Sequence record: CP132210.1 | Origin: a plasmid | Length of the DNA stretch: 64,000 nt | Direction: 5' to 3' (one strand) | Part shown: in pieces, positions 31,492 through 49,069 of the stretch | How positions within the stretch are numbered: the stretch's first letter is position 1 | Layout: every line of letters begins with the position of its first letter | Translations under genes and position numbers: made by a program | The notes under the pieces: model-generated | The model's input: only the letters and a program-made list of their open reading frames with translations | What the model was told of the DNA's origin: nothing | The model's database searches: none

Positions 31492-32370
31492 ATGGCGAAC
31501 AACTTCATCTCAGAACAATTCTCGGCAATGTGCCGCGACCTGACGAGCCTCTCTTCCCTTCTTATCAAACGACTACCTCCACGGTACGCAAAAGTTGCGG
31601 CAATCCCTCCAACCAGAAAAGGAATGGAGAATGAGGCCATCAACAGGATTGTTGTCACAGAACAAACTGGCCGCGAAGCTCTTGAGCTGGCAGCGCACAG
31701 CTACAGGGATCTTCACATTAACCCAGACTATTCGCAGAAGTCTGCCAGGCGCACCGTAGGGGTGCTCTGGTTCTCCCCTTCCAGGATTGGTGTTGCTGAC
31801 GAAATTGCGGCGACGGTTGAACGCATAAATGCGGCCAAAGCTGGTATCGAGGAGTTCATTATCTCGACGTACCCCACCAGACAAGAGAGGTTTGAAGCAC
31901 TCCGAGCGGAATGCCCTGGCGTCATGACTCTGCACCTTTACAGACAAATCAGGTGCTATGCCAATGGCGACATCGACTCTATCCGCTTCACTTGGCAACG
32001 GAAGGACTCATTGAAAAGGCCGGTAAAAGAGGAGCTTTTGCAACGCATCAGAGAGGAGCTGGAGCGATCAGGGCCAGACTATCAACTTCCCCTGGAGCAG
32101 CTTATCCAGAAGATAGCAAACACCCCGGAGCCTTATCTCCGGGAGCGAAGGGAGGTGAAGGTTCAGCCGGTGGCAAACATCATGGCCGCTGGCGAACTCA
32201 AAACTGTCACCGCGCCAATGCCCCTAATCGTGCTCCAGGATAAGGATATTCAGCTCAAATTGCTTCGTAACTTCGACGCCTCAGAACAACGCAAAACGCG
32301 ATCTGATAAAGCGGCATCGGAAATCCTTGGCACCTTCGGTGGCATCACTATCGAATCCTTCCCCGGATGA
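31492..32370 (+). CDS. Divergent Tus-like protein (DNA replication terminus site-binding protein family)
   Basis: 292 aa. Recalled E. coli Tus aligns in several blocks: NPLNRIEVKQHLG...SKAAVRLPGVL vs EAINRIVVTEQTG...SARRTVGVLW; LPGLITLNAYRTL...LRFGWANK vs CPGVMTLHLYRQI...IRFTWQRK; KRPVKVQPIARVW...PTPLIAL vs RREVKVQPVANIM...PMPLIVL. Confidence 0.55.
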   Translation: MANNFISEQFSAMCRDLTSLSSLLIKRLPPRYAKVAAIPPTRKGMENEAINRIVVTEQTGREALELAAHSYRDLHINPDYSQKSARRTVGVLWFSPSRIGVADEIAATVERINAAKAGIEEFIISTYPTRQERFEALRAECPGVMTLHLYRQIRCYANGDIDSIRFTWQRKDSLKRPVKEELLQRIREELERSGPDYQLPLEQLIQKIANTPEPYLRERREVKVQPVANIMAAGELKTVTAPMPLIVLQDKDIQLKLLRNFDASEQRKTRSDKAASEILGTFGGITIESFPG

Positions 32371-32406
32371 ACCTGCGTGACAACGTAACAAAGCCCTTCT
32401 CCAAGA

Positions 32407-32673
32407 GGGGTCGCTTCAGAATTCGGAAATTAAAGCACGTTAAGAGATCCGATACCCAGCAACTGCGCGGCTTTGCGCAAGCTGCCAACCCCTAGAAACA
32501 GCATTTTCGTGGTTCTCGAAACTCGGCTGTTTCAGCCGTGCAATATGAGAGTGGTTTTCGAGAAAGCAACATGCCATACCAGCACTAGCGCGGATCTGAT
32601 TCTCATTGAAGCCTCTCAAAAACGATCGTTTGCGAGAAGCTAGACCATGCCAGCGGCTTACCGTACGATTTTT
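32407..32673 (+). mobile_element. TIME-like (Tn3-derived inverted-repeat miniature) element: 38-bp IR, 212 bp interior, then the inner 17 bp of a second IR; interrupted by IS5075
   Basis: Left IR GGGGTCGCTTCAGAATTCGGAAATTAAAGCACGTTAAG at 32407..32444. At 32657..32673, cttaccgtacgattttt is the reverse complement of AAAAATCGTACGGTAAG, the inner part of a Tn501/Tn1721-type IR. IS5075 abuts it exactly at its known IR target position. No coding capacity between the IRs. Confidence 0.55.
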
Positions 32674-33592
32674 AATGAGATGGTCACTCCCTCCTTCCCG
32701 GTACTATGCTGAGGACAGGCTTTCATTCGGAGAACTATCATGGAAAACATTGCGCTCATTGGTATCGATCTGGGTAAAAACTCTTTCCATATTCATTGCC
32801 AGGATCGTCGCGGGAAGGCTGTTTACCGTAAAAAATTTACCCGGCCAAAGTTGATCGAATTTTTGGCGACATGCCCCGCTACAACCATCGCAATGGAAGC
32901 CTGTGGCGGTTCTCACTTTATGGCACGCAAGTTGGAAGAGTTGGGGCATTCCCCAAAGCTGATATCACCACAATTTGTCCGCCCGTTCGTTAAAAGCAAT
33001 AAAAACGACTTTGTCGACGCCGAAGCTATTTGTGAAGCTGCATCGCGTCCGTCTATGCGTTTTGTGCAGCCCAGAACGGAATCTCAGCAGGCAATGCGGG
33101 CTCTGCATCGTGTCCGTGAATCCCTGGTTCAGGATAAGGTAAAAACAACCAATCAAATGCATGCTTTTCTGCTGGAATTTGGCATTAGCGTTCCCCGAGG
33201 AGCTGCCGTTATTAGCCGACTGAGTACCATTCTTGAGGACAATAGTTTGCCTCTTTACCTCAGCCAGTTATTGCTGAAATTACAACAGCATTATCACTAT
33301 CTTGTTGAGCAGATTAAAGATTTGGAATCCCAGTTGAAACGAAAGTTGGACGAAGATGAGGTTGGACAGCGCTTGCTGAGCATTCCCTGCGTCGGAACAC
33401 TGACAGCGAGTACTATTTCAACTGAGATTGGCGACGGGAAGCAGTACGCCAGCAGCCGTGACTTTGCGGCGGCAACAGGGCTTGTACCTCGGCAGTACAG
33501 CACGGGAGGTAGGACGACATTGCTGGGAATTAGTAAGCGAGGTAATAAAAAGATCCGAACTTTGTTGGTTCAATGGTAATCCCCCCATTTTT
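32674..33592 (+). mobile_element. IS5075/IS4321-type (IS110 family) element, 3'-truncated
   Basis: The end aatgagatggtcactccctcc matches the tnp-proximal end of the complete copy at 44554..45880. The transposase ORF stops prematurely at 33579, where the IS3-family element begins. Confidence 0.85.
32740..33579 (+). pseudogene. IS5075-type transposase, truncated (279 of 334 aa)
   Basis: MENIALIGIDLGKNSFHIHCQDRRGKAVYRKKF... is about 98% identical to the ORF at 44810..45814 and ends ...IRTLLVQW. Confidence 0.9.
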
Positions 33593-33613
33593 TGGAGCAC
33601 TCAAAAGTAGAGG

Positions 33614-34441
33614 TCATGCGGCCTGTGCCAAGCGCTGTTTCGGCGTGTAGCCGCCCAGCGCCATATTGGGCCGCTCATGGTTATAAACCCACAGCCAGTT
33701 CGTGGCAAATTCCTGTAACTCATTCAGTGACTCAAACAGGTAATGGCCCAACCAGTCGTAACGCACAGTGCGGTTAAATCGCTCTATGTAGGCATTCTGC
33801 TGCGGGTTGCCTGGCTGGATATACCTCAGCGCAATCCTCTTCTGCTGCGCCCATTGCTTGAGCTCTTCGCTGATGTATTCCGGACCATTATCACAGCGGA
33901 TAGCGGCTGGTTTGCCCCGCCACTCGATGACCTGCTCCAGCACCCGTTTGACTCGCGAGGCAGGCAAGGAAAAATCCACCTCGATGCACAGTGCTTCGCG
34001 ATTGAAGTCATCGATCACATTAAACAACCGCACCGAACGACCATCGCTGAGCTGGTCATGCATAAAGTCCATCGACCAACAGTGATTCGGTTGGTCAGGG
34101 ACTGCCAACGGCTCCGGCTTGGCCCGCACTAGCCGCTTCTTGGGTTTTATCCGCAGATTGAGCTCTAGCGCCCGATAGATCCGGTAGACCCGCTTGTGGT
34201 TCCAGCCAAAGCCTTTGACGTTACGCAGGTACAGGAAGCACAGTCCGAAACCCCAGTTGCGCTGGTTGGCGGTGAGGCGCAGCAGCCAGTCGGCAATCTC
34301 CTGGTTTTCATCAGCCAGCACGGGCTGATAACGGTAGCAACCCTCGCTCACCTTGAACACCTGGCAAGCCAGACGGATAGAAATGGCGTAATGAGCCACA
34401 GCCTTGGTCGCCATCTCCCTGCGGGCAGATGGCGTCACCAC
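33614..34441 (-). CDS. IS3-family transposase OrfB (DDE integrase core)
   Basis: 275 aa. Overlaps orfA by 7 nt in the -1 frame. Confidence 0.8.
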
Positions 34442-34701
34442 TTTTTTGCCATCGCCTCGGAGATGATCTCAGCCTTTAGGCGCTCCTCGGCATACATCTT
34501 CTTAAGGCGACGATTTTCCTCTTCCAGCTCTTTGAGGCGCGCCATGAGAGAGGCATCCATGCCACCGAATTTGGAGCGCCACTTGTAGAAGGTGGCGGAG
34601 CTGATGCCATGCTCACGGCAGAGCTCAGGGACGGGTGAACCAGACTCGGCCTGCTTGAGGATGGCGATGATCTGTGCATCGCTAAAGCGTGATGTTTTCA
34701 T
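34435..34701 (-). CDS. IS3-family transposase OrfA
   Basis: 88-aa HTH protein. Confidence 0.8.
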
Positions 34702-34989
34702 GTAGAACCTCCTGCGTTCAAGATAGGGGTCTGAGGTCCAACCATGCGAAAAACCACGTTAAGAAAGCAACCTTCTGAAAAGGCGACGTTTATCAGTTTT
34801 TTTTCCGGCCATAAAGGGGGCGGAAATTATTCCCTGCACGGGTATTCGCAAGGATTTCGGTAGTGCTCTGGCTCTGCCCCCCATAACCTGGCGGACAGAG
34901 CATGATTGGGAAAGCGGTACCCTCACGGCAGAAACGATTGACGCAGGCTATATTTCTATTATTCTGGAAATATAGATAAAGGAGGTATT

Positions 34990-35170
34990 ATGGATTTAAA
35001 CACTGCTGCAAACGCACTTCGAGAACTGGGCCACCCGACACGTCTCAGCATATACCGGGAGCTGGTCAGGGCGGGTCATGAAGGCCTGCCGGTTGGCGAA
35101 CTGCAGAAGCACCTTGAGATTCCTGCCTCCACGCTCAGCCATCATCTTTCAGCGCTGATATCCGCTGGAC
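34990..35170 (+). pseudogene. arsR: ArsR/SmtB-family regulator, 3'-truncated by IS26
   Basis: MDLNTAANALRELGHPTRLSIYRELVRAGHEGLPVGELQKHLEIPASTLSHHLSALISAG, with the frame continuing into the IS26 IR. The preceding Shine-Dalgarno sequence aaggagg is intact. Confidence 0.7.
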
Positions 35171-35990
35171 GGCACTGTTGCAAATAGTCGGTGGTGATAA
35201 ACTTATCATCCCCTTTTGCTGATGGAGCTGCACATGAACCCATTCAAAGGCCGGCATTTTCAGCGTGACATCATTCTGTGGGCCGTACGCTGGTACTGCA
35301 AATACGGCATCAGTTACCGTGAGCTGCAGGAGATGCTGGCTGAACGCGGAGTGAATGTCGATCACTCCACGATTTACCGCTGGGTTCAGCGTTATGCGCC
35401 TGAAATGGAAAAACGGCTGCGCTGGTACTGGCGTAACCCTTCCGATCTTTGCCCGTGGCACATGGATGAAACCTACGTGAAGGTCAATGGCCGCTGGGCG
35501 TATCTGTACCGGGCCGTCGACAGCCGGGGCCGCACTGTCGATTTTTATCTCTCCTCCCGTCGTAACAGCAAAGCTGCATACCGGTTTCTGGGTAAAATCC
35601 TCAACAACGTGAAGAAGTGGCAGATCCCGCGATTCATCAACACGGATAAAGCGCCCGCCTATGGTCGCGCGCTTGCTCTGCTCAAACGCGAAGGCCGGTG
35701 CCCGTCTGACGTTGAACACCGACAGATTAAGTACCGGAACAACGTGATTGAATGCGATCATGGCAAACTGAAACGGATAATCGGCGCCACGCTGGGATTT
35801 AAATCCATGAAGACGGCTTACGCCACCATCAAAGGTATTGAGGTGATGCGTGCACTACGCAAAGGCCAGGCCTCAGCATTTTATTATGGTGATCCCCTGG
35901 GCGAAATGCGCCTGGTAAGCAGAGTTTTTGAAATGTAAGGCCTTTGAATAAGACAAAAGGCTGCCTCATCGCTAACTTTGCAACAGTGCC
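35171..35990 (+). mobile_element. IS26 copy 4
   Basis: IRs at 35171..35184 and 35977..35990. Flanks cgctggac and ttttttcc give no TSD. Confidence 0.97.
35234..35938 (+). CDS. tnpA: IS26 transposase
   Basis: Identical Tnp26. Confidence 0.97.
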   Translation: MNPFKGRHFQRDIILWAVRWYCKYGISYRELQEMLAERGVNVDHSTIYRWVQRYAPEMEKRLRWYWRNPSDLCPWHMDETYVKVNGRWAYLYRAVDSRGRTVDFYLSSRRNSKAAYRFLGKILNNVKKWQIPRFINTDKAPAYGRALALLKREGRCPSDVEHRQIKYRNNVIECDHGKLKRIIGATLGFKSMKTAYATIKGIEVMRALRKGQASAFYYGDPLGEMRLVSRVFEM

Positions 35991-36442
35991 TTTTTTCCTG
36001 CGGTGTACGACGCCGACGCCGCTCAGGTCCTGATAACACTCCAACCATCTTATCGTTCTGACTGGTATTAAACATAGTTCCAAGACTACCTCTTATTTTA
36101 AGAGAGTCGAAGTGTCTGGTGATCTATGGGGCCAGTCTAGCCCTCTTCCAAGTGTAGGGAGATATAGTCAAAGTTTGCTTCTCCGCCGATGAGTCCGCCC
36201 TGCGTCGGATAGTCCGATTTTTTACCGGCGAAGCACGGCTCTCCTAACCCTATCTAAAGCGAATAACTTTTTTCAACAGGGCCGCGTGCCAATGCAAGAG
36301 CGATAGGCGCTCTACGCGCCAATTTGACCACTTAAAACAGGTAAATTGAGGGGTTGTAATGTGTTGATGTAACAGGCTTTTATTTTAATGTCTTGGCATA
36401 TGTATAATGGTAGTCTAGCCCTCCTTTCAACAAGGAGTACTC

Positions 36443-37099
36443 ATGGAAACCTACAATCATACATATCGGCACCACAACTTTTCACATAAAGACTTAAGTG
36501 ATCTCACCTTCACCGCTTGCACATTCATTCGCAGCGACTTTCGACGTGCTAACTTGCGTGATACGACATTCGTCAACTGCAAGTTCATTGAACAGGGTGA
36601 TATCGAAGGCTGCCACTTTGATGTCGCAGATCTTCGTGATGCAAGTTTCCAACAATGCCAACTTGCGATGGCAAACTTCAGTAATGCCAATTGCTACGGT
36701 ATAGAGTTCCGTGCGTGTGATTTAAAAGGTGCCAACTTTTCCCGAACAAACTTTGCCCATCAAGTGAGTAATCGTATGTACTTTTGCTCAGCATTTATTT
36801 CTGGATGTAATCTTTCCTATGCCAATATGGAGAGGGTTTGTTTAGAAAAATGTGAGTTGTTTGAAAATCGCTGGATAGGAACGAACCTAGCGGGTGCATC
36901 ACTGAAAGAGTCAGACTTAAGTCGAGGTGTTTTTTCCGAAGATGTCTGGGGGCAATTTAGCCTACAGGGTGCCAATTTATGCCACGCCGAACTCGACGGT
37001 TTAGATCCCCGCAAAGTCGATACATCAGGTATCAAAATTGCAGCCTGGCAGCAAGAACTGATTCTCGAAGCACTGGGTATTGTTGTTTATCCTGACTAA
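36443..37099 (+). CDS. qnrS1: Pentapeptide-repeat quinolone resistance protein QnrS1
   Basis: 218-aa ORF METYNHTYRHHNFSHKDLSDLTFTACTFIRSDFRRANLRDTTFVNCKFIEQGDIEGCHFDVADLRDASFQQCQLAMANF... Confidence 0.95.
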   Translation: METYNHTYRHHNFSHKDLSDLTFTACTFIRSDFRRANLRDTTFVNCKFIEQGDIEGCHFDVADLRDASFQQCQLAMANFSNANCYGIEFRACDLKGANFSRTNFAHQVSNRMYFCSAFISGCNLSYANMERVCLEKCELFENRWIGTNLAGASLKESDLSRGVFSEDVWGQFSLQGANLCHAELDGLDPRKVDTSGIKIAAWQQELILEALGIVVYPD

Positions 37100-37417
37100 T
37101 TGCTTTGATGTGTGATTTTAAACGCTCAAATTTATAAAACGAATAATATTGTCAACCTTGCAATAATAGACATAGGGACAACCATGTATAAATTTTTACC
37201 CTCAGGCGTCTTCACAATAGAGCCATATAGCAGTGGGTCACTTAGTGGGCTTAATTTTTCCATTAAAGATAATATTAATATTGCTCAGTATAAAACATCA
37301 TATGGTAGCCCATCTTGGCAAGTAAACATAAGGCTGCCATTTATAAGGCACTGTTGCAAAAATGTGGAGGTGATAGGGGTACTACGCCGGAACCCCAGAT
37401 TTTTCCGTCCGTTCAAA

Positions 37418-38032
37418 TTATCCACGGTTGAACAGCTTGATCCCGTCCGCCCGCAGTTGACCAACAGGGGAAATATGCCTGTACAAAGTTTGCCGGGTTA
37501 TCCCAAGTTCCTGGCATAGCGTACTGACCTTTGTTTCTGATTGTCCCATTGATGCCATTGCCAGTCGCAGTTTGACTGGCGTCATTTTATAAGGTCGGCC
37601 GCCGTTCCGCCCACGGGCTCTTGCTGATGCCAGACCTGCAGTCGTTCTTTCAGCAATCAGTTCGCGCTCAAACTCCGCCAGTGCGGCAAAGATACCGAAG
37701 ACAAGCTTGCCAGCGGCCGTTGTTGTGTCGATAGTCGCCCCGTGACCGGTCAGCACTTTCAGACCGGTCCCCCTCGCGGTCAGGTCGTGCACTGTATTAA
37801 TGAGATGACGAAGATCACGACCGAGGCGGTCCAGCTTCCATACGACCAGCGTGTCTCCGGGTCGTAGTGCTTTCAGACAGGCTGTAAGTCCAGGACGCTC
37901 TTCTCGTTTGCCCGATGCCCGGTCCTCATAAAAATGTGCGGCATCAACACCTGCGGCGATCAGTGCATCACGTTGTAAATCATTCGTCTGCGAACCATCC
38001 GCTTTTGACATCCGAATATATCCGATGAACAT
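37418..38032 (-). CDS. Serine resolvase/invertase (TnpR-like)
   Basis: MFIGYIRMSKADGSQTNDLQRDALIAAGVDAAHFYEDRASGKREERPGLTACLKALRPGDTLVVWKLDRLGRD... The listed ORF extends 18 codons further upstream. Confidence 0.8.
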   Translation of the reverse strand: MFIGYIRMSKADGSQTNDLQRDALIAAGVDAAHFYEDRASGKREERPGLTACLKALRPGDTLVVWKLDRLGRDLRHLINTVHDLTARGTGLKVLTGHGATIDTTTAAGKLVFGIFAALAEFERELIAERTTAGLASARARGRNGGRPYKMTPVKLRLAMASMGQSETKVSTLCQELGITRQTLYRHISPVGQLRADGIKLFNRG

Positions 38033-38273
38033 ATTTCCTCTGTCACATATACGTTCGATTATGTGACATTCTGATTTGGGTACCATAATCTGTCAACGGT
38101 AGTCACATTACCCGTAATTTAAATTATGACACGTAAAGGTTCTATGTTAATGATAATGTGACAAGCGCGTTTAAATAGGCAGAGAGCATGAAAAACCTCG
38201 GGGCAGCCATCGAATGATGCCATCTACAGGGGTTAAAATAACCACCATCATTTCATAACAATACCTGCTGACT

Positions 38274-38864
38274 ATGAAGATCTACGTCATCAAAATAGCA
38301 GTTCATGGAGTCAGTCCGATGGTCTGGCGTCGGCTGAGAATTGCTGCCGACACGTCACTGGCCGCGCTTCACTTCATTTTCCAGATAGTGCAGGGCTGGG
38401 GGGACGACCATCTCCATCAATTTCACATTTATGGCAAAGATTACGGTATCTCCTACGAAGGAGGCATCGGTTTTGTCGATAATCCGTTCCGGGTCGTGAT
38501 TGATGATTTTGCTTTTGATGCTGGCGATCGCTTTACCTATGAATACAATTTCTTTGAGCACTGGCTTCATGACATTCGTGTTGAGGCCATTTATGAAAAC
38601 TCTACGCTGAAAGCGCCGTTTTGTATAAGCGGCCATGGTATGCCCGGAGCCACAGCTGCGGATGAGTTCGATAAAACCCTGGCGTTTCTTGAAGCTATCG
38701 TTAATGCGGATGATGAAACAACGGTCGGCGAGATCCGCCCTTTTGCTGACGACCTGGATGCTGTCAGGTTCAACCGCCACAAAATCAACCGGCAACTGAG
38801 CAGGCTCGACCTTGCATCTCCGGTACTGGAGCCTGAAGTTATCTGGCTGGGCCGTCGTCGCTGA
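38274..38864 (+). CDS. Hypothetical protein (pRiA4b ORF-3-like family)
   Basis: 196-aa ORF. Family assigned by recollection of domain similarity only. Confidence 0.4.
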   Translation: MKIYVIKIAVHGVSPMVWRRLRIAADTSLAALHFIFQIVQGWGDDHLHQFHIYGKDYGISYEGGIGFVDNPFRVVIDDFAFDAGDRFTYEYNFFEHWLHDIRVEAIYENSTLKAPFCISGHGMPGATAADEFDKTLAFLEAIVNADDETTVGEIRPFADDLDAVRFNRHKINRQLSRLDLASPVLEPEVIWLGRRR

Positions 38865-39000
38865 CTGATGTCTATAAAGGTATACGTTTTCAGCATGCCT
38901 CTCAGATCCCCGAAAAAATGTCTATAAACCTCCCTAAATCAGTGTTTATGGATTATTCTTTAAATCTCTATGATGTTTAAAGACCTTCCGGAGGTTTTGC

Positions 39001-39573
39001 GTGCAATATGCCTACATCAGGGTAAGCTCGGCCGATCAGAATACGGCCCGTCAGGAAGAGGCATTGTCAAAGGCGGGTTTTCAGCCTGATAAAATTTGTG
39101 TTGAGCATGCCAGCGCGAAGGACACAAACCGCCCGGGGTTACAGGAACTCCTGGGGCAATTACGCCCTGGTGATACGCTTCTGGTTCATTCCATCGATCG
39201 CCTTTGCCGGAATATGTCGGATATGTGCGCTGTCACCACCCGGCTTCGTGACCAGGGCGTTACCCTTATTTTTCTGAAAGAGCAGCTGACGTTCAGCGCC
39301 GGCACAAACAATCCGATGCAGGAACTGCAGCTGCACATGATGTCGGCATTCAGCCAGTTTGAACGAGCCTTACTGAAGGAAAGGCAGGCCGACGGCATCG
39401 CCGCGAAAAAAGCACGGGGTGAAAAAACAGGGCGCCCCGGCGCCGATATCAAAAAGATCCAGGAAATTGACGCACTCAGAAGCAGAGGGGTCAGGCTCAG
39501 GATCGCCTGCGACCATGCGGGCCTTGGCGTTTCCACATATTATAAGCTTCGTCACCAGATGAACAACCAGTAG
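39001..39573 (+). CDS. Serine recombinase (resolvase/invertase family)
   Basis: MQYAYIRVSSADQNTARQEEALSKAGFQPDKICVEHASAKDTNRPGLQELLGQLRPGDTLLVHSIDRLCRN..., with the catalytic Ser and Arg pattern of small serine recombinases. Confidence 0.8.
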   Translation: MQYAYIRVSSADQNTARQEEALSKAGFQPDKICVEHASAKDTNRPGLQELLGQLRPGDTLLVHSIDRLCRNMSDMCAVTTRLRDQGVTLIFLKEQLTFSAGTNNPMQELQLHMMSAFSQFERALLKERQADGIAAKKARGEKTGRPGADIKKIQEIDALRSRGVRLRIACDHAGLGVSTYYKLRHQMNNQ

Positions 39574-39606
39574 CCGGGAGATAGTCATCCACCACAGCAG
39601 GAGGCA

Positions 39607-41001
39607 ATGATGCAACTGACGCTCCAGATAGTCATCACCGATGAATCAGGCTCCAGTCGAACGGAGGAACTGATGACAATCCAGAAATCAGGGGAGACCC
39701 GGAACGACATCGGATTATCGGTGTCAGAATCCAAGCTGTTGCTGAATACGGTCCAGCAGTCGGTGGTCCAGCTGCAGGCAGACGAATATACTCAACACCA
39801 TATCCGGTGCCCTCACTGCCTTGCTGCGCGCAGAATCAAAGGCAAACAGAAAATACGGTACCGGACGCTGTTTGGCGTTATTCCGGTATCCGGGCTTCGG
39901 GTGTACCGGTGCCGTTGTGAAGAGAGTGATACAAAGACAGTCAGTTTGCTCAGCGACTGGGCCGGCGATTATTCTCACCCGGCACTGAAATATATTGAAA
40001 CCCGCTGGGCCTCGATGATCTCCTATGAAATGACGACTCGTCTGCTGAAAGATATTCTGCCGGTGGGCCACAGCCTGAATGCCTCAACGGTGAGGAATCA
40101 TTTATGCCAGGTGGCGCAGCGTCTTGACGCTGAGGCTGAAGCTCATTCAGGTTTTCTTTCCGGCTGCCCCCGCGACTGGGGGAACCTGCCCAGGCCAGGA
40201 AAACCGCTTGTGGTGGGTATAGATGGTGGTTATGTTCGCGATCGGGATGACAAAAAGCGTAATTTTGAAATTATTGCCGGGAAGTCTTTTTCCGTTGGTG
40301 CGCCTGCTGACACCCGCCGCTTCGGTTTTGTTCAGAAGGATGACTGTCATCCGGAACGCAGGCTCATGACCCACCTTTCAGCGCAGGGAATGCAGGCCAA
40401 CCAGCAGATATTTTTTCTGTCCGACGGCGCGGATAATCTCAGGGACCTCCAGTTCGGTATGTACCCTGAGTCAACGCATGTGCTGGACTGGTTTCATATC
40501 ACCATGAGGCTGACGGTGCTCATGCAATATGCCCGGGGACTGCTGGTATCAGATCCAGAGGCGGGGAGTAAAGTTCTGGCACTGCTGGAAAGCATTAAAC
40601 GATATCTCTGGCATGGCAATGTTGTCGCTGCGCTGGAACATATTGATAATTGCGTTATGTATTGCGATGACCCTGAACTCAGCTATCCTAGCCTGAAATC
40701 CCTGCAAAAACATCTGGATGAAATGTATACCTACATCCGGAATAATAAGATGATGATCCCAAACTACGGCGAAATGCGTCGGTACGGAGAGCCGGTATCA
40801 ACCGCGTTTGTGGAATCCACGATCAATGAAGTGATCGCCAGACGAATGGCCAAAAAGCAGCAGATGCAGTGGAGCAGAAAAGGGGCTCATTATTTGTTAC
40901 AGACCCGGACCGCCGTTTTGAATAACGAACTGCAGGATAAATTTGTCTGCTGGTATCCGGGTTTTCAAAGTGACGGGAAGGGACCAGCGATGGCAGCATA
41001 G
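39607..41001 (+). CDS. ISKra4-family transposase (ISKpn19-like), commonly linked to qnrS1
   Basis: 464-aa ORF with zinc-finger-like CPHC...CRC N-terminus and a DDE region. Position next to qnrS1 is the classic context. The element boundaries (roughly 38.9..41.03 kb) were not resolved. Confidence 0.7.
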   Translation: MMQLTLQIVITDESGSSRTEELMTIQKSGETRNDIGLSVSESKLLLNTVQQSVVQLQADEYTQHHIRCPHCLAARRIKGKQKIRYRTLFGVIPVSGLRVYRCRCEESDTKTVSLLSDWAGDYSHPALKYIETRWASMISYEMTTRLLKDILPVGHSLNASTVRNHLCQVAQRLDAEAEAHSGFLSGCPRDWGNLPRPGKPLVVGIDGGYVRDRDDKKRNFEIIAGKSFSVGAPADTRRFGFVQKDDCHPERRLMTHLSAQGMQANQQIFFLSDGADNLRDLQFGMYPESTHVLDWFHITMRLTVLMQYARGLLVSDPEAGSKVLALLESIKRYLWHGNVVAALEHIDNCVMYCDDPELSYPSLKSLQKHLDEMYTYIRNNKMMIPNYGEMRRYGEPVSTAFVESTINEVIARRMAKKQQMQWSRKGAHYLLQTRTAVLNNELQDKFVCWYPGFQSDGKGPAMAA

Positions 41002-41095
41002 CTCACGCTGCCCCAATATTTTTTATGCTCTCCTAAAAGAACTTTCCGCTAAGCGATAGACTGTATGTAAACACAGTATTGCAAGGACGCGGAAC

Positions 41096-41521
41096 ATGCC
41101 TCATGTGGCGGCCAGGACGGCCAGCCGGGATCGGGATACTGGTCGTTACCAGAGCCACCGACCCGAGCAAACCCTTCTCTATCAGATCGTTGACGAGTAT
41201 TACCCGGCATTCGCTGCGCTTATGGCAGAGCAGGGAAAGGAATTGCCGGGCTATGTGCAACGGGAATTTGAAGAATTTCTCCAATGCGGGCGGCTGGAGC
41301 ATGGCTTTCTACGGGTTCGCTGCGAGTCTTGCCACGCCGAGCACCTGGTCGCTTTCAGCTGTAAGCGTCGCGGTTTCTGCCCGAGCTGTGGGGCGCGGCG
41401 GATGGCCGAAAGTGCCGCCTTGCTGGTTGATGAAGTACTGCCTGAACAACCCATGCGTCAGTGGGTGTTGAGCTTCCCGTTTCAGCTGCGTTTCCTGTTT
41501 GGGGTCGTTTGCGGGAAGGGG
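41096..41521 (+). pseudogene. ISCR2 (IS91-family rolling-circle) transposase, N-terminal fragment
   Basis: MPHVAARTASRDRDTGRYQSHRPEQTLLYQIVDEYYPAFAALMAEQGKELPGYVQREFEEFLQCGRLEHGFLRVRCESCHAEHLVAFSCKRRGFCPSCGARRMAESAALLVDEVLPEQPMRQWVLSFPFQLRFLF, an IS91-family N-terminus. It ends in junk, and truncated CR2 beside strB is the typical setting. Confidence 0.8.
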
Positions 41522-41606
41522 CGGAATCCTACGCTAAGGCTTTGGCCAGCGATATTCTCCGGTGAGATTGATGTGTTCCCAGGGGATAGGAGAAGTCGCT
41601 TGATAT

Positions 41607-42443
41607 CTAGTATGACGTCTGTCGCACCTGCTTGATCGCGGCCGCGATAGCTAGATCGCGTTGCTCCTCTTCTCCATCCGCGTTCCAAGCTGCGGAAAGG
41701 CACCCATAAGCGTACGCCTGGTCGAGCAGGCGACGCGGATCGACGTCCAGCGCACGAGAGAATGCGTCCGCCATCTGTGCAATGCGTCTAGGATCGAGAC
41801 AAAGGTCGTCTCTGTCAGCCGGATCGTAGAACATATTGGCGGCGCCAAAGCCCACTTCACCGACCAGACCGACGGGATCTATCACCAGCCAGCCGCGACT
41901 GGAGAACATGATGTTTTCATGATGCAGATCGCCATGTAGCCCACGCAGTTCCGAGGCATTGCTCATCATTTGATCGGCTATAATCGCCGCGTGGACGTAG
42001 TCAGTTTGACAACCTGCGTTTTGATCATCGCGCGCCCGCTGAAACAAAGCTGCAAAGCGATCCCGGATCGGGAGAAGGGCAGAAGGCAGGGGTTCCTCAG
42101 ATGCGGCATACAGCTTCGCCATTAGTTCCGCTGCAATTTCGGTCGCCTGGTAGTCGCCGTGCTCGGCAACGATGTGAGAGAGCATTCGCTCCCCGGCATA
42201 TTCGAGCAACATCAGATTGTTCTCACGACCGAGCAACCGGACTGCTCCCCTCCCATTGCGCCATACCAGATAGTCGGCCCCGCGCAGTTCATCAGCAATG
42301 TCTTTTATAGGTTTCAATCCCTTGACGATTGCAGGAGTCCCGTCTGGCAATGAAACTTTCCAAACGAGGCTGGAAAAGGTGTCCGCAATGAGAACAGGTT
42401 GCGAAACGTGCCAATGAGCAGGAAAAACAGGCGGCATGAACAT
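41607..42443 (-). CDS. strB: Aminoglycoside 6-phosphotransferase APH(6)-Id (StrB)
   Basis: MFMPPVFPAHWHVSQPVLIADTFSSLVWKVSLPDGTPAIVKGLKPIKDIADELRGADYLVWRNGRGAVRLLG... The listed ORF starts 3 codons upstream. Confidence 0.95.
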   Translation of the reverse strand: MFMPPVFPAHWHVSQPVLIADTFSSLVWKVSLPDGTPAIVKGLKPIKDIADELRGADYLVWRNGRGAVRLLGRENNLMLLEYAGERMLSHIVAEHGDYQATEIAAELMAKLYAASEEPLPSALLPIRDRFAALFQRARDDQNAGCQTDYVHAAIIADQMMSNASELRGLHGDLHHENIMFSSRGWLVIDPVGLVGEVGFGAANMFYDPADRDDLCLDPRRIAQMADAFSRALDVDPRRLLDQAYAYGCLSAAWNADGEEEQRDLAIAAAIKQVRQTSY

Positions 42444-43246
42444 CAACCCCAAGTCAGAGGGTCCAATCGCAGATAGAAGGCAAGGCGTTCGCGGTCGGGG
42501 GCTTCGATCCCCAATACATTGAATAGGACAGCGAAGGCGCGCTCTGCTTCATCTGGCGCTGCCCAGTTCTCTTCGGCGTTAGCAATCATGAGTGCCAAAT
42601 CGGCATAGCGATCTGCTGTTCCGAGCCGCCCAAGGTCGATCAGACCCGTGCATTGAAGAGTTTTAGGGTCCACCATGAAGTTCGGCATGCAGGGATCACC
42701 ATGGCAAACAACCATATCGGTGCGCTCTTGGTCGAGCCGCACCGGTAGCTCTCGTTCGACACGAGCCAAAAGATCGAGCTGCGGCGTACTCTTGTCCTCG
42801 TCCGGTAAGAAGTCGGGATTGACGGCATTGCGGGACACCACATCAACGGCGCGTCCGAACATTCGCGACAGCCTGCGCTCAAACGGACATTGATCAACCG
42901 ATAGGCTGTGAACAGCGCCAAGTTGCTGCCCCATTGACGGCCACGCTTTGAGCAAATCCGCTCCAGACAGATCAGCCGCCGGTACTCCCGGAATTGCCGT
43001 TATCACCAAGCATGCACCCTCCTGTTCCTCCTGCCAGTTGATGACCTCGGGGCAAGCCACACCTCGACCTTTGAGCCAAATGAGGCGGTCACGCTCTCCA
43101 GCGAGCTCACCGCGGCGGGAAGCAGGTGCGATTTTCGCGAAGGCATGCCCGTCACCACGTCGAAAAACAAAATCACCAGATTCTCCGCCTCTGACAGGCA
43201 ACCAGTCAGAATGCGATTCACCAAAAAAAATATTAGTTCGATTCAA
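42443..43246 (-). CDS. strA: Aminoglycoside 3''-phosphotransferase APH(3'')-Ib (StrA)
   Basis: 267-aa ORF MNRTNIFFGESHSDWLPVRGGESGDFVFRRGDGHAFAKIAPASRRGELAGERDRLIWLKGRGVACPEV... Confidence 0.95.
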   Translation of the reverse strand: MNRTNIFFGESHSDWLPVRGGESGDFVFRRGDGHAFAKIAPASRRGELAGERDRLIWLKGRGVACPEVINWQEEQEGACLVITAIPGVPAADLSGADLLKAWPSMGQQLGAVHSLSVDQCPFERRLSRMFGRAVDVVSRNAVNPDFLPDEDKSTPQLDLLARVERELPVRLDQERTDMVVCHGDPCMPNFMVDPKTLQCTGLIDLGRLGTADRYADLALMIANAEENWAAPDEAERAFAVLFNVLGIEAPDRERLAFYLRLDPLTWG

Positions 43247-43306
43247 TGGAGGTTCCTTCAGTTTTCTGATGAAGCGCGAATATAGAGAAATATCCCGAAT
43301 GTGCAG

Positions 43307-44122
43307 TTAACGAATTCTTGCGGTTTCTTTCAGCGCCGCCAATACCGCCAGCCCGTCGCGCAAGGGGCGCGGCTCGTGTGTGCGGATGAAGTCAGCTCCA
43401 CCTGCGGCGGCGGCAAGCTCTGCAGCGAGTGTCGCGGCCCCGACATCCCCCGGACCACGGCCTGTGAGCGCGCGCAGAAAGGATTTGCGCGAAACAGACA
43501 GAAGCACCGGCAAATCGAAGCGCAGCCGCAATTCATCGAACCGCGCCAGCACCGAGAGCGAGGTTTCGGGAGCAGCCCCCAGAAAAAACCCCATGCCGGG
43601 ATCAAGGACAAGGCGGTTGCGTTTGATACCGGCACCCGTCAGCGCCGCGATGCGCGCGTCAAAGAACGCCGCAATGTGATCCATGATGTCGCCAGCGGGT
43701 GCCTCGCGCCGATCTGCCTGCCCGTCTTGCACCGAATGCATAACGACGAGTTTGGCAGATGATTTCGCCAATTGCGGATAGAACGCAGCGTCTGGAAAAC
43801 CGCGAATATCATTGAGATAGGCCACACCACGCGACAAGGCATAGGCTTGCGTCGCGGGTTGATAACTGTCGAGCGAGACGGGAATGCCATCTGCCTTGAG
43901 CGCGTCCAGCACCGGCGCGATACGCGCGATTTCTGTGTCGGACGAAACAGGCGCGGCGTCGGGATTGCTGGATGCCGGACCGAGGTCGATCACATCTGCC
44001 CCCTCGGCCATCAGCTTACGCGCCTGCGCAATGGCTGCGTCTGGCGCCAGATACCGGCCTCCATCGGAGAAACTGTCCGAGGTTATGTTGACGATGCCGA
44101 AAATGATGAGCGATTTATTCAT
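43307..44122 (-). CDS. sul2: Sulfonamide-resistant dihydropteroate synthase Sul2
   Basis: 271-aa ORF MNKSLIIFGIVNITSDSFSDGGRYLAPDAAIAQARKLMAEGADVIDLGPASSNPDAAPV... Confidence 0.95.
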   Translation of the reverse strand: MNKSLIIFGIVNITSDSFSDGGRYLAPDAAIAQARKLMAEGADVIDLGPASSNPDAAPVSSDTEIARIAPVLDALKADGIPVSLDSYQPATQAYALSRGVAYLNDIRGFPDAAFYPQLAKSSAKLVVMHSVQDGQADRREAPAGDIMDHIAAFFDARIAALTGAGIKRNRLVLDPGMGFFLGAAPETSLSVLARFDELRLRFDLPVLLSVSRKSFLRALTGRGPGDVGAATLAAELAAAAGGADFIRTHEPRPLRDGLAVLAALKETARIR

Positions 44123-44553
44123 GGGGGCTTCTATAATAATAATAATCGAGCATGAGTCTCATACGGATGCTCGGGTCGAAAGGGAATCCCCAGGCGAGTA
44201 ACCTGTTTGCGGTGCTCCATTAGCTGCAGGAGCAGAATAGCATACATCTGGAAGCAAAGCCAGGAAAGCGGCCTATGGAGCTGTGCGGCAGCGCTCAGTA
44301 GGCAATTTTTCAAAATATTGTTAAGCCTTTTCTGAGCATGGTATTTTTCATGGTATTACCAATTAGCAGGAAAATAAGCCATTGAATATAAAAGATAAAA
44401 ATGTCTTGTTTACAATAGAGTGGGTATCGGAGACGAAGAAGGACAAGGTACATGCTGACCGATACCAAGCTGCGCAATCTCAAGCCCAGGGACAAACTCT
44501 ACAAAGTGAATGACCGGGAAGGTCTCTATGTGGGGGTCGCCTCAGAAAACGGA

Positions 44554-45880
44554 ATCTATGGTCACTCCCGTTTTTGCAACACCGATTTTGACGACAAGTT
44601 GGCTTGCTTGAATCTATCCGGCGTCTGAATGGGATTTTATTCCCGCGCCTCGATGAGTTCCGCGCCTGATGAACCTCCAGAAAATATACGGCTTCAATGA
44701 GCCTTTCCGTTTTACAGGTTCCTCAACAGGCCGGTGGGCCGTTAGTATCATCAATATCAGTATTCGCAAAACCAGATGAATGATTGTTTAAACTGGTGTA
44801 TTTCTGCCTTTATGCTTCGTAAGTTTGCTGTCGCGCCGTCAGTGCCCAGGCTATTCTGGCCAGCTTGTTTGCCAGAGCACAGGTGACGACAAAGTTGCTT
44901 TTCCGACACAACAACTCCCTGACCCAGTCGGCCAACTTGCCAGACTGGTGTTCCAGTTTTTGTATGAATACCCTGGCACACTGAACCAACAAAGTTCGGA
45001 TCTTTTTGTTGCCCCGCTTGCTAATCCCTAACAATGTCGTCCGACCTCCCGTGCTGTACTGTCGGGGTACCAGCCCTGTTGCCGCCGCAAAGTCACGGCT
45101 GCTGGCGTACTGCTTCCCGTCGCCAATCTCAGTTGAAATAGTACTGGCAGTCAGCGTTCCAACGCAGGGAATACTCAGCAAGCGCTGTCCAACCTCATCT
45201 TCGTCCAACTTTCGTTTCAACTGAGATTCCAGATCTTTAATCTGCTCAACAAGATAGTGATAATGCTGTTGTAATTTCAGCAGTAACTGGCTGAGATAAA
45301 GAGGCAAACTACTGTCCTCAAGAAGGGTACTCAGTCGACTAATAACGGCAGCACCTCGCGGAACGCTGATACCAAATTCCAGCAGAAAAGCATGCATCTG
45401 ATTAGTTGTTTTCACCTTATCCTGAACCAGGGATTCACGGACACGATGCAGAGCTCGCATTGCCTGCTGAGATTCGGTTCTGGGCTGCACGAAACGCATA
45501 GATGGACGTGATGCTGCTTCACAGATAGCTTCAGCATCAACGAAGTCATTTTTGTTGCTTTTAACGAATGGGCGGACAAATTGCGGTGATATCAGCTTTG
45601 GAAAATGCCCTAACTCTTCCAGCTTGCGTGCCATAAAGTGAGAACCGCCACAGGCTTCCATCGCGATGGTTGTTGCCGGGCATGTCGCCAGAAATTCGAT
45701 TAGCTTTGGTCGGGTGAATTTTTTACGGTAAACGGCCTTCCCACGATGATCCTGACAATGAATATGGAAAGAGTTCTTACCCAGATCGATACCAATAAGC
45801 GCAATGTTTTCCATGATGGTTCTCCGAATGAAAGCCTGTCCTCAGCATAGTACTGGGAAGGAGGGAGTGACCATCTCATT
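44554..45880 (-). mobile_element. IS5075/IS4321 (IS110 family), complete 1327-bp copy inside IRtnp
   Basis: Boundaries were defined by the split IR. It carries an intact 334-aa transposase. Confidence 0.9.
44810..45814 (-). CDS. IS5075-type transposase (IS110 family, DEDD)
   Basis: 334-aa ORF MENIALIGIDLGKNSFHIHCQDHRGKAVYRKKFTRPKLIEFLATCPATTIAMEACGGSHFMARK... Confidence 0.9.
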   Translation of the reverse strand: MENIALIGIDLGKNSFHIHCQDHRGKAVYRKKFTRPKLIEFLATCPATTIAMEACGGSHFMARKLEELGHFPKLISPQFVRPFVKSNKNDFVDAEAICEAASRPSMRFVQPRTESQQAMRALHRVRESLVQDKVKTTNQMHAFLLEFGISVPRGAAVISRLSTLLEDSSLPLYLSQLLLKLQQHYHYLVEQIKDLESQLKRKLDEDEVGQRLLSIPCVGTLTASTISTEIGDGKQYASSRDFAAATGLVPRQYSTGGRTTLLGISKRGNKKIRTLLVQCARVFIQKLEHQSGKLADWVRELLCRKSNFVVTCALANKLARIAWALTARQQTYEA

Positions 45881-45892
45881 AAATAAAGCACG

Positions 45893-47658
45893 CTAAGCCG
45901 GTTGCAGCGGTCGTAGCGGCCTGAACTTGCCCGCGCCGATCTTGGCGCTGCTGCGCCAGAGGTAATCGCCGGTGAGGTTGATGTGCTCCCAACCGAGCGG
46001 CGACAGGTACTGCAACAGCGCGTCATCAACGGCATGGCCGTTGCCACGCAGCGCGTGCGCAGCCCGTTCCAGATAGACCGTGTTCCACAACACGACGGCA
46101 GCCGTTACCAGATTGAGGCCGCTAGCCCGGTAGCGCTGCTGCTCGAAACTGCGGTCGCGGATTTCACCCAGGCGGTTGAAAAACACTGCCCTGGCCAGCG
46201 CATTGCGCGCCTCGCCCTTGTTCAGGCCGGCATGCACGCGGCGGCGCAGTTCCACGCTTTGCAGCCAGTCCAGGATGAACAGCGTGCGCTCGATGCGGCC
46301 CAGCTCGCGGAGCGCCACGGCCAGGCCGTTCTGGCGTGGGTAGCTGCCGAGCTTTCGGAGCATCAGGGAGGCCGTCACCGTGCCCTGCTTGATCGAGGTG
46401 GCCAGCCGCAGGATTTCGTCCCAATGGGCGCGGACGTGCTTGATGTTGAGCGTGCCGCCGATCATGGGTTTCAGCGCGTCATAGGCGGCGTCGCCCTTCG
46501 GGATGTAGAGCTTGGTGTCGCCCAGGTCGCGGATGCGCGGCGCGAAGCGGAAGCCCAGGAGGTGCATCAGGGCGAAGACGTGATCGGTGAAGCCCGCCGT
46601 GTCGGTGTAATGCTCCTCGATCCGCAAGTCGGACTCGTGGTACAGCAGGCCGTCGAGCACGTAGGTCGAATCGCGCACGCCGACGTTCACGACCTTGGTG
46701 TGAAATGGCGCGTACTGGTCAGAAATGTGGGTGTAGAACGTCCGCCCTGGGCTGCTCCCGTATTTCGGGTTGATGTGGCCGGTGCTCTCGGCCTTGCTGC
46801 CGGTGCGGAAGTTCTGGCCGTCCGACGATGAGGTGGTGCCGTCGCCCCAGTGCTCGGCGAAGGGATGGCGGAACTGTGCGTTGACCAGATCGGCCAGCGC
46901 CGCCCCGTAGGTTTCGTCGCGGATGTGCCAGGCTTGCAGCCAAGCCAGCTTGGCGTAGGTCGTGCCGGGGCAAGACTCCGCCATCTTGGTCAGGCCCAGG
47001 TTGATCGCGTCGGCGAGGATCGTGGTCAGCAACAGGTTCTTGTCTTTGGCCGGGTCGCCCGATTTCAGATGCGCGAAATGCCGAGTGAAGCCCGTCCATT
47101 CGTCCACCTCCAGCAGCAGTTCGGTGATCTTGACGTGCGGCAGGATCATTGCCGTCTGGTCGATCAGCGCTTGGGCGGTGTCGGGTACCGCCGCGTCGAG
47201 CGGCGTGATCTTCAAGCCTGACTCGGTGATGATGGCGTCCGGCAGCTCGTTGGCCGTCGCCATACGGTTGACGGTGGCAAGCTGTGTTTCCAGCAGCGTC
47301 AGCCGGTCGTTCAGGTACCGGTTGCAGTCGGTGGCCACGGCCAGCGGCAATTCGCTGGCCTGCTTGAGGCTGGCGAATTTCGCGGGCGGCACCAGGTAGT
47401 CCTCGAAGTCCTTGAACTGGCGCGACCCCTGCACCCAGATGTCGCCGGAACGCAACGCGTTCTTCATCTCCGACAGCGCGCACAGTTCGTAGTAGCGCCG
47501 GTCGATGCCGGTGTCGGTCATGACCAGCTTCTGCCAGCGCGGCTTGATGAACTCGGTCGGCGCGTCGGCGGGCACCTTGCGGGCGTTGTCGCTGTTCATG
47601 CCGCGCAGCACCTCGATGGCGTCGAGCACGTCCTTCGCGGCGGGAGCGGCCCGCAGCT
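45893..47658 (-). pseudogene. tnpA: Tn21-type TnpA, C-terminal about 588 aa, 5'-truncated by IS26 copy 5
   Basis: ...[61 protein letters not shown]...RPLRPLQPA. The stop abuts IRtnp. It is only about 70% identical to the tnpA fragment at 1..1380 in the overlapping region, so it belongs to a different transposon. Confidence 0.9.
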
Positions 47659-48478
47659 GGCACTGTTGCAAAGTTAGCGATGAGGCAGCCTTTTGTCTTA
47701 TTCAAAGGCCTTACATTTCAAAAACTCTGCTTACCAGGCGCATTTCGCCCAGGGGATCACCATAATAAAATGCTGAGGCCTGGCCTTTGCGTAGTGCACG
47801 CATCACCTCAATACCTTTGATGGTGGCGTAAGCCGTCTTCATGGATTTAAATCCCAGCGTGGCGCCGATTATCCGTTTCAGTTTGCCATGATCGCATTCA
47901 ATCACGTTGTTCCGGTACTTAATCTGTCGGTGTTCAACGTCAGACGGGCACCGGCCTTCGCGTTTGAGCAGAGCAAGCGCGCGACCATAGGCGGGCGCTT
48001 TATCCGTGTTGATGAATCGCGGGATCTGCCACTTCTTCACGTTGTTGAGGATTTTACCCAGAAACCGGTATGCAGCTTTGCTGTTACGACGGGAGGAGAG
48101 ATAAAAATCGACAGTGCGGCCCCGGCTGTCGACGGCCCGGTACAGATACGCCCAGCGGCCATTGACCTTCACGTAGGTTTCATCCATGTGCCACGGGCAA
48201 AGATCGGAAGGGTTACGCCAGTACCAGCGCAGCCGTTTTTCCATTTCAGGCGCATAACGCTGAACCCAGCGGTAAATCGTGGAGTGATCGACATTCACTC
48301 CGCGTTCAGCCAGCATCTCCTGCAGCTCACGGTAACTGATGCCGTATTTGCAGTACCAGCGTACGGCCCACAGAATGATGTCACGCTGAAAATGCCGGCC
48401 TTTGAATGGGTTCATGTGCAGCTCCATCAGCAAAAGGGGATGATAAGTTTATCACCACCGACTATTTGCAACAGTGCC
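47659..48478 (-). mobile_element. IS26 copy 5
   Basis: IRs at 47659..47672 and 48465..48478. Flanks ccgcagct and cagtccac give no TSD. Confidence 0.97.
47711..48415 (-). CDS. tnpA: IS26 transposase
   Basis: Identical Tnp26. Confidence 0.97.
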   Translation of the reverse strand: MNPFKGRHFQRDIILWAVRWYCKYGISYRELQEMLAERGVNVDHSTIYRWVQRYAPEMEKRLRWYWRNPSDLCPWHMDETYVKVNGRWAYLYRAVDSRGRTVDFYLSSRRNSKAAYRFLGKILNNVKKWQIPRFINTDKAPAYGRALALLKREGRCPSDVEHRQIKYRNNVIECDHGKLKRIIGATLGFKSMKTAYATIKGIEVMRALRKGQASAFYYGDPLGEMRLVSRVFEM

Positions 48479-48978
48479 CAGTCCACGCCTCAGAACTTGT
48501 GGGCTCGCTTTTAAAAAGTTCCCGTCCGTCAGGGCTGGCGCAGGCGATTATGGAGGTGGGACGGGTCAACAAGACGCTGTACCTCCTCAACTACATTGAT
48601 GATGAAGAATATCGTCGCAGGATACTGACTCAGCTTAACCGGGGAGAAGGCCGTCACGCCGTGGCAAGGGCGATCTGTTACGGCCAACGTGGTGAGATTA
48701 GAAAACGTTACCGTGAGGGGCAGGAGGATCAACTGGGTGCGCTGGGGCTTGTCACTAACGCAGTTGTATTGTGGAACACGCTTTATATGCAGGAAGCGCT
48801 ATCACATTTGCGCAGCGCTGGTGAGATCCCGGAAGACGAGCATATCTCACGCCTGTCGCCACTGATGTACGGTCATATCAACATGCTGGGACATTATACG
48901 TTCACGCTGCCGGAAAATATTCTGAAGGGAGAGTTGAGGCCATTAAATTTCAATTCAAACAATGAATTATTGCCTTAA
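48479..48978 (+). pseudogene. tnpA: Tn3-family (Tn3/Tn2-like) TnpA C-terminal fragment, 5'-truncated by IS26
   Basis: ...LNRGEGRHAVARAICYGQRGEIRKRYREGQEDQLGALGLVTNAVVLWNTLYMQEALSHLRSAGEIPEDEHISRLSPLMYGHINMLGHYTFTLPENILKGELRPLNFNSNNELLP, ending in its 38-bp IR. Confidence 0.8.
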
Positions 48979-49011
48979 CGTGGTTTTTTACACGATTGAA
49001 CCTCGAACCCC
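48974..49011 (-). repeat. 38-bp Tn3-family terminal IR (outer GGGG at 49011) belonging to the tnpA fragment at 48479..48978
   Basis: CTTAACGTGGTTTTTTACACGATTGAACCTCGAACCCC is the reverse complement of a GGGG...TAAG IR. Confidence 0.7.
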
Positions 49012-49069
49012 AGATACGAGAAAATTCTACTTATGAGCACCTCAGTTTTTCGGGGGGATTACCCAATGT

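Follow-up and report, generated by a model that had tools for sequence, protein, structure and literature searches.

A split copy of the Tn3-derived miniature element IMU at the root of a resistance island in an IncA plasmid

What is the short, gene-free stretch of DNA that ends abruptly at an insertion sequence (IS) in the backbone of an IncA plasmid, next to an island of resistance genes? We addressed this question in a 64,000-nucleotide stretch of plasmid CP132210.1 (the window), in which the feature under study occupies positions 32407..32673; over this region, the window shares 100% identity with NZ_CP107721.1, an IncA plasmid of E. coli. The analysis indicates with high confidence that the feature belongs to one complete copy of IMU, a 288-bp Tn3-derived miniature element (TIME), which was inserted into the IncA backbone and later split. 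The element itself is already known, having been described in 2009 in plasmid pCHE-A.

The stretch opens with a 38-bp repeat, GGGGTCGCTTCAGAATTCGGAAATTAAAGCACGTTAAG (32407..32444), continues with 212 bp of gene-free DNA (32445..32656) and ends with CTTACCGTACGATTTTT (32657..32673), the inner 17 bp of an inverted second repeat, abutted by an IS1111-type IS that begins at 32674 (AATGAGATGGTCACTCCC...). An earlier note on this DNA, made from the sequence alone, had described the same three parts, a complete Tn21-family repeat, the non-coding segment and the inner portion of a second repeat, and all of them are present where it had placed them. The 267 bp are matched in about 105 PLSDB plasmids at 99-100% identity and are therefore no chance resemblance. 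In the 7.5-kb IncQ plasmid pCHE-A, which carries two copies, the 267-bp sequence continues for 21 bases to a full second repeat, forming a 288-bp element. The window sequence is identical to this element over 267/267 positions (L001 4001..4267), and its last 21 bp (through 4288) are likewise matched 21/21 by TCCGTTTTCTGAGGTGACCCC, the outer part of the right repeat, which is found once more within the window, at 49494..49514, directly 3' of the 3' end of the same IS, here identified as IS4321. The earlier note had suggested looking for this outer part elsewhere on the replicon, and this is where it reappears. Once the two parts are rejoined, the element is the same 288 bp as that of pCHE-A at 100% identity, with the same two non-identical 38-bp repeats, which match each other at 28/38 bases and the Tn21 repeat at 32/38 and 31/38.

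IMU, the MITE of the "integron mobilization unit" of Enterobacter cloacae pCHE-A, was described by Poirel et al. (2009) and counts as a TIME of Tn21-subgroup origin (PMC13367494). Composites with IMU at both ends and blaGES-5 between them moved once the transposase of ISSod9 (Tn21 subgroup) was supplied in trans, according to the summary by Gomi & Yano (2026, PMC13367494). TIMEs generate 5-bp duplications, and the ends of IMU resemble those of Tn21 (Gomi & Yano 2026, PMC13367494). The copy in the window combines identity to the pCHE-A element with the general features of a TIME, namely, Tn3-family repeats of about 38 bp at both ends, small size, no genes and a target duplication of 5 bp (the usual length in TIMEs, with 6 bp as a rare variant). 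The IMU composites of pCHE-A lack flanking duplications (PMC13367494), whereas the copy described here is a solitary insertion whose 5-bp duplication is clean and whose empty site is known; also in contrast to the pCHE-A element, its right repeat is split by IS4321 and by further nested insertions. Only a single IMU left repeat and interior are present in the window, and the intervening 16.8 kb consist of nested insertions rather than of a passenger between two copies, so that the arrangement is not a composite of the TIME-COMP kind.

The rejoined element is bounded on both sides by the pentamer CAAGA (Table 1). We rebuilt the empty site by joining 250 bp of the left flank to 250 bp of the right flank with a single CAAGA kept, and the resulting 500 bp align end to end, with no gap, at 99.0-99.8% identity in 21 plasmids among the matches listed, including the IncA reference RA1 (NC_012885.1); in hundreds of IncC-type plasmids, the identity is about 88%. 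The CAAGA pair together with the empty site in relatives identifies IMU, with all that it now contains, as an insertion into the IncA backbone. The insertion point lies 32 bp downstream of a tus-like gene (31492..32370), in the loop between the 13-bp arms of a perfect inverted repeat, AACAAAGCCCTTC / GAAGGGCTTTGTT (32383..32406 plus 49515..49537 in the rebuilt site), which folds as a hairpin of -29.5 kcal/mol; no T-run follows the hairpin on either strand, making it unlike a classical terminator. The proposal of a non-autonomous, TIME-like member of the Tn3 family, put forward in the earlier note, is thus borne out by a discrete 288-bp unit with two 38-bp repeats and no gene, by the CAAGA duplication and by the empty site in IncA relatives.

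Table 1. Coordinates of IMU and of the insertions nested within it (positions of the window).
Feature	Positions	Strand	Evidence and remarks
Left target duplication CAAGA	32402..32406	.	Same pentamer beyond the right repeat
IMU part 1 (element positions 1-267)	32407..32673	+	Left repeat, interior, inner 17 bp of right repeat; identity to pCHE-A
Interior blocks of the IMU family	32509..32637	+	B 32509..32525, C 32547..32564, D 32579..32593, E 32600..32605, F 32612..32637; alignment A2
Putative relic of parent tnpA start codon (ATG)	32647..32649	+	Alignment with L036 6012..6040, ...GAGAAG..GAGAC..CATGCC
IS4321 5' part (IS positions 1-902)	32674..33575	+	blastn 100% over 902 bp; transposase open reading frame 32740.. 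truncated
ISAs22 (IS3 family) main part, orfA/orfB	33576..34723	-	RefSeq annotation of identical sequence; inserted in IS4321
14.3-kb Tn3-family resistance unit in ISAs22	34724..49011	.	38-bp repeats, AGATA duplication; annotation of 100%-identical NZ_CP107721.1
ISAs22 remaining 52 bp of 5' end	49012..49063	-	Between AGATA duplication and resumption of IS4321 at 49064
IS4321 3' part (IS positions 898-1327)	49064..49493	+	blastn 99.8% over 430 bp
IMU part 2 (element positions 268-288), TCCGTTTTCTGAGGTGACCCC	49494..49514	+	Exact match to last 21 bp of pCHE-A element
Right target duplication CAAGA	49515..49519	.	Follows outer end of right repeat

One CAAGA pair flanks the entire stretch, which is also compatible with the whole 17.1 kb (32407..49514) being one large transposon with IMU-type ends that inserted as a unit together with qnrS1, strAB and sul2. 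We consider such a single event very unlikely. Each inner element has its own boundaries, with IS4321 halves that join exactly, CAATG around the IS3-family element ISAs22 and AGATA around the Tn3-family resistance unit; an intermediate with IMU::IS4321 alone is present at the same site in pIncA_Silv108 (L004); other plasmids (H44-H48) share the sequence only as far as the ISAs22 break; and a transposon moving as one unit would have had an interrupted right repeat. Stepwise insertion into a solitary IMU is the reading that we follow below.

The first of the nested elements was typed by blastn against the intact 1327-bp IS4321 of pIncA_Silv108 (L004 6675..8001), a reference copy that RefSeq assigns to the IS4321 family. 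The earlier note had recognised an IS4321/IS5075-type IS at the usual position of a Tn21-type repeat and had named it IS5075; the position stands, given that the right repeat of IMU is split into 17 and 21 bp, but the name does not. Judged from its sequence, the IS inside IMU is of the IS4321 type, not of the IS5075 type, and it is only 93.6% identical to the IS5075-type copy located elsewhere in the window, at 44554..45880. IS5075 and IS4321 target one position in the 38-bp repeats of the Tn21 family (PMC6052338), and the properties seen here are those of a 1327-bp IS of this type (IS1111 group, IS110 family), with a fixed position and orientation in the repeat and no target duplication. Six T residues are conserved across the junction in IMU, and the second IS copy splits its own Tn21-type repeat (44533..44553, IS at 44554..45880, then 45881..45897) at the same point and in the same orientation. 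This IS5075-type copy (minus strand), within its Tn21-type repeat, adjoins a TnShfr1-like tnpA (45905..47671), which is truncated by IS26 and shows 92% amino-acid identity to residues 397-986.

The order of the two oldest insertions can be approached through other plasmids. The IncA plasmid pIncA_Silv108 carries exactly IMU::IS4321 at the same site as the window. An identical IMU is also found in IncP-6 blaKPC-2 plasmids of the p10265-KPC / p121SC21-KPC2 type, many of them with the same IS4321 at the same position in the right repeat; these copies differ from the IncA copy by their site, inside merT, and by their duplication, ATGAT. In the IncP-6 plasmids of about 39 kb IMU is intact, and in those of about 40.4 kb it is present as IMU::IS4321 at the same site. 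That the merT copy occurs both with and without IS4321 implies that IS4321 arrived once IMU was in place. The published account of the IncP-6 KPC plasmids credits IS4321 with the disruption of merT and does not mention the miniature element (PMC5487458).

Under the history that we propose, IMU transposed into the hairpin loop downstream of the tus-like gene in the IncA backbone, creating the CAAGA duplication, a step shown by this duplication and by the empty site. IS4321 next entered the right repeat at its usual position between the 17-bp and 21-bp parts, as shown by the intermediate pIncA_Silv108; ISAs22 then inserted in IS4321, and the Tn3-family resistance unit in ISAs22 with an AGATA duplication, followed by IS26 remodelling. 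The halves of IMU now lie about 16.8 kb apart. IMU itself would move by replicative Tn3-type transposition with a Tn21-subgroup TnpA supplied in trans, as established in the literature for IMU composites with the TnpA of ISSod9. Two points weigh against this picture: at the IncA site, the order with IMU first and IS4321 second would follow from parsimony and from the IncP-6 parallel, and a tblastn search found no complete Tn3-family transposase gene in the window, where the TnAs1 tnpA is cut by the edge and two further remnants are truncated.

This copy of IMU, although complete, is very probably immobile because, in its right repeat, the inner part to which transposase binds no longer adjoins the end that is cleaved. 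The suggestion, made in the earlier note, that the element could be mobilised by transposases present here is accordingly doubtful for this copy, given that about 16.8 kb interrupt its right repeat and that the sole tnpA of the Tn21 subgroup that may be intact, the one of TnAs1, runs off the window. The portion of this gene within the window comprises its N-terminal 460 codons (1..1380, minus strand), and it is the only possibly intact Tn21-type transposase within reach of IMU.

IMU belongs to a widespread family. In Aeromonas, Pseudomonas, Azotobacter and many Betaproteobacteria there are relatives with 70-95% identity, nearly all of them exactly 288 bp in length; perfect 5-bp duplications, TGTTT, TAATA, TCCTT, TATTA, GTCCT and TGTTC, flank several of these relatives. 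The search for other copies with intact repeat pairs and 5-bp duplications, which the earlier note had recommended, thus yields identical or related 288-bp elements at other sites. One variant of the family recurs with 100% identity at eight loci, representing seven distinct sites, in seven genera. Duplications are missing from many copies, which have one flank in common with another copy, in varied combinations (L015/L018/L027, L020/L026), a pattern to be expected from recombination between copies or from composite structures. Identical 288-bp members from different Betaproteobacteria (L015, L018, L022 and L027; L020, L024, L026 and L029) share left or right flanks, without target duplications.

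Conservation within the family is concentrated in interior blocks (Table 1) rather than in the ends. Mean pairwise identity reaches 92% in block B (element positions 103-119), 90% in block C (141-158) and 100% in block E (194-199), compared with 84% and 78% in the terminal repeats and 33-60% in the spacers. Blocks B and C contain an invariant 9-bp inverted repeat, TTCTCGAAA/TTTCGAGAA; block F (206-231) is a 26-bp near-palindrome, CTCTCAAAAACGATCGTTTGCGAGAA, centred on CGATCG; and a motif near TTCTCGAAAAC is repeated four times, or five with block E. Comparison of two Aeromonas lineages (A. veronii pAV1812 and A. salmonicida; L007 and L008) with the pCHE-A element (L001) revealed that the two repeat types, distinguished by their inner part (AAAAAATCGTACG or AATTTAAAGTACG), have exchanged ends, with the orientation of the interior unchanged.

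Neither a protein nor an RNA product emerged from the interior. A small protein was rejected, no frame being conserved in the family, with in-frame stops in relatives and substitutions unbiased by codon position (50/47/47). A small or structured RNA was likewise rejected, given that RNAalifold recovered only the pairing of the terminal repeats and the invariant 9-bp inverted repeat, without covariation in the core, and that there was no Rfam match. No full-length parent was found among 18 matches of the core pattern in species-representative genomes, all of which are 288-bp relatives or fragments; partial matches in Sulfuriferula and A. salmonicida, considered as parents, proved to be degenerate or truncated family members. 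Shortened relatives are present on plasmids as well. IncC plasmids such as pMG252 (L013 3001..3189) carry a 189-bp fragment that corresponds at 88% identity to the left repeat and blocks B to D, the left two-thirds of IMU, and abuts the 3' end of a recombinase-family gene. In A. salmonicida plasmids (H105-H107), an element of about 129 bp aligns with IMU at the two ends only, as two pieces of 85% identity, and may be a still shorter derivative of the family.

Where did this element originate? The right repeat of IMU matches the tnpA-end repeat of transposons of the TnShfr1/ISPa38 family at 37/38 bases, and its left repeat matches their other repeat at 32/38. With a profile built from the family interior only, the best match outside the family was a 158-bp divergent region directly upstream of a TnShfr1/ISPa38-type tnpA, colinear with IMU positions 107-235 (15.2 bits, E 7e-4); among 300 dinucleotide shuffles of the 6.2-kb transposon (1.87 Mb), the best score was 7.7 bits. 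IMU also aligns with the ribosome-binding region of tnpA and appears to retain a relic of its start codon (Table 1), about 7 bp from the right repeat. These comparisons favour reading IMU as the product of an old deletion in a TnShfr1/ISPa38-type transposon, which would have lost the body of tnpA and kept both ends, the divergent tnpA-upstream region and the start codon. Transposons of this family (pSN1104-59, pKp_SB612_4, pENT-1ac) resemble IMU in their repeats and in the colinear tnpA-upstream region, but unlike IMU they are autonomous, carrying tnpA, a resolvase, a toxin-antitoxin pair and further open reading frames on 6.2 kb, and the likeness of the interior is distant (15 bits). A tblastn search with the TnShfr1-type resolvase TinR (BBE29235.1 is an example) found nothing convincing that would identify the left interior (positions 39-102) as a relic of a resolvase C-terminus.

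The homology of the interior to the TnShfr1-like tnpA-upstream region and the retained ATG relic could also be taken to mean that the 267 bp are the end left behind when a full-length Tn3-family transposon lost its interior at this very spot, the scenario that the earlier note itself had raised against its proposal. It can be set aside as extremely improbable. The 288-bp unit is 100% identical at unrelated IncQ, IncP-6 and IncA sites with different 5-bp duplications, diverged relatives retain exactly 288 bp, and an empty site exists for this insertion; together, these observations place the deletion once, long ago, and not in this plasmid.

Given an ancient deletion derivative, the question becomes what its conserved interior might do. 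We consider it a reasonable possibility, somewhat short of an even chance, that the interior corresponds to the parent's res/promoter region and could let a cognate resolvase resolve cointegrates. In autonomous relatives, the homologous region is located between tnpA and a leftward operon ending in a resolvase gene, and in two plasmids, a 25-bp terminal repeat of Tn402/Tn5053-type transposons lies in the TnShfr1-type tnpA-upstream region at about the same point; such elements prefer inserting into res sites occupied by resolvase (PMC7765201). Several considerations weigh against a res site: the assignment would draw on a weak 15-bit match and on insertions of res-hunting elements in the homologous region of autonomous relatives, and no known res motif was found in the IMU interior. 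We know of no resolvase-binding motif for the TnShfr1-type group. Furthermore, the interior of IMU is reported to be without similarity to the res sites of Tn3, Tn21 or Tn1721 (Gomi & Yano, PMC13367494), and the conserved blocks could instead have a promoter/operator or other function.

In that case, the blocks would represent the promoter/operator of the parent tnpA or the site of some other factor, kept for outward transcription or regulation of neighbouring genes, or without present function. This alternative is appreciable, although it falls on the doubtful side. The homologous TnShfr1-like region separates divergent operons and extends to the ribosome-binding site and ATG of tnpA, and must therefore contain promoters; the missing likeness to characterised res sites (PMC13367494) points in the same direction. 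A sigma-70 consensus scan, however, found no promoter or terminator inside IMU, and blocks B, C and E show stronger conservation than the ends to which transposase binds, even across lineages with swapped repeat types, which argues for a function needed by the element itself. The location of res-hunting transposons in the homologous region likewise speaks for res, and because the res site and promoters of Tn3-type elements overlap, both readings are compatible.

There are precedents for miniature elements that carry a parental res, namely, IS101 (gamma-delta) and TIME244 (Tn21 subgroup). IMU resembles these TIMEs in its Tn3-family ends, absence of a transposase, 5-bp duplications and an interior that appears to derive from the regulatory/res region of the parent. 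It differs from them in that its parent type would be TnShfr1/ISPa38-like rather than Tn3 or Tn21 proper, and in its lack of similarity to classical res; in IMU, res function is a prediction.

In a K. pneumoniae IncR plasmid (L039 2501..2600), the TnShfr1-type tnpA-upstream region is present in a variant form, shortened by about 80 bp. The missing segment lies exactly between two copies of the ...AGAA motif (TTTCAAGAA and GAAGGAAACCGCATG) and comprises the C-like block together with most of the F-like one.

The two pieces of IS4321 overlap by 5 bp, CAATG, present at 33571..33575 and 49064..49068, and this duplication marks the insertion of ISAs22, which has the terminal repeats GGTAATCCCCCC / GGGGGGATTACC and exact ends that are ambiguous within the duplicated CAATG. 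The resistance unit within ISAs22 is bounded by GGGGTCTGAGGTCCAACCATGCGAAAAACCACGTTAAG at 34724..34761 and by GGGGTTCGAGGTTCAATCGTGTAAAAAACCACGTTAAG, the reverse complement of 48974..49011, and is flanked by AGATA at 34719..34723 and 49012..49016. It carries two copies of IS26, qnrS1, ISKpn19, aph(6)-Id, aph(3'')-Ib, sul2, IS5075 and truncated tnpA remnants, and of its own transposase, only a C-terminal fragment (48430..48969) is left. The segment 34719..49016 corresponds to the qnrS1/strAB/sul2 island that IncA papers name "ARI-I" and describe as IS26-flanked; the island was published without the nested structure (PMC7466171). Elsewhere in the window, a solitary Tn1721-like 38-bp repeat, GGGGGAACCGCAGAATTCGGAAAAAATCGTACGCTAAG (11283..11320, minus strand), lies without a nearby partner repeat or transposase just downstream of an open reading frame resembling a chemotaxis receptor (9743..11131) and is followed by an open reading frame for a DeoR-type regulator.

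Splitting by an IS also affects how often IMU is recorded. Requiring 95% or more in both identity and coverage, Gomi & Yano (2026) reported IMU in 7/11,572 genomes (PMC13367494). An IS-split copy covers 267/288 bases, or 92.7%, and is thus missed under this coverage criterion. In PLSDB, an identical intact right end is found in only about 49 plasmids, compared with about 105 that carry the 267-bp part; taking the difference between the two counts as the split fraction, about half of the PLSDB carriers of IMU have the IS-split form. A direct count by megablast of the junction was uninformative, since other repeat::IS junctions match as well. Among complete E. coli genomes, IMU is present in 11/5426 and is always plasmid-borne. 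Annotation pipelines leave the element blank or label it as a hypothetical protein.

Recognising IMU at this locus explains why an IS restricted to Tn21-type repeats sits in an intergenic region of the IncA backbone, and how the qnrS1/strAB/sul2 island arrived, each inserted element being the site for the next. Moreover, the link between the interior and the TnShfr1-type tnpA-upstream region provides a testable origin and a candidate resolvase partner. A broader proposal, which we put forward tentatively and regard as rather unlikely, is that the interior rather than the ends would be the defining constrained part of the IMU family, a portable res/promoter module derived from TnShfr1/ISPa38-type transposons. 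If this were true, IMU copies would use a trans-acting resolvase to resolve the cointegrates that they form, would act as recombination hot spots that reshuffle flanking DNA, and would offer a landing pad for res-hunting Tn402/class 1 integron elements besides the IS4321/IS5075 pad in the right repeat. Such a module would explain the family copies that lack target duplications and share flanks in different combinations, the conserved length and core despite swapped repeat types, and the presence of IMU beside integron remnants and at the root of a resistance island.

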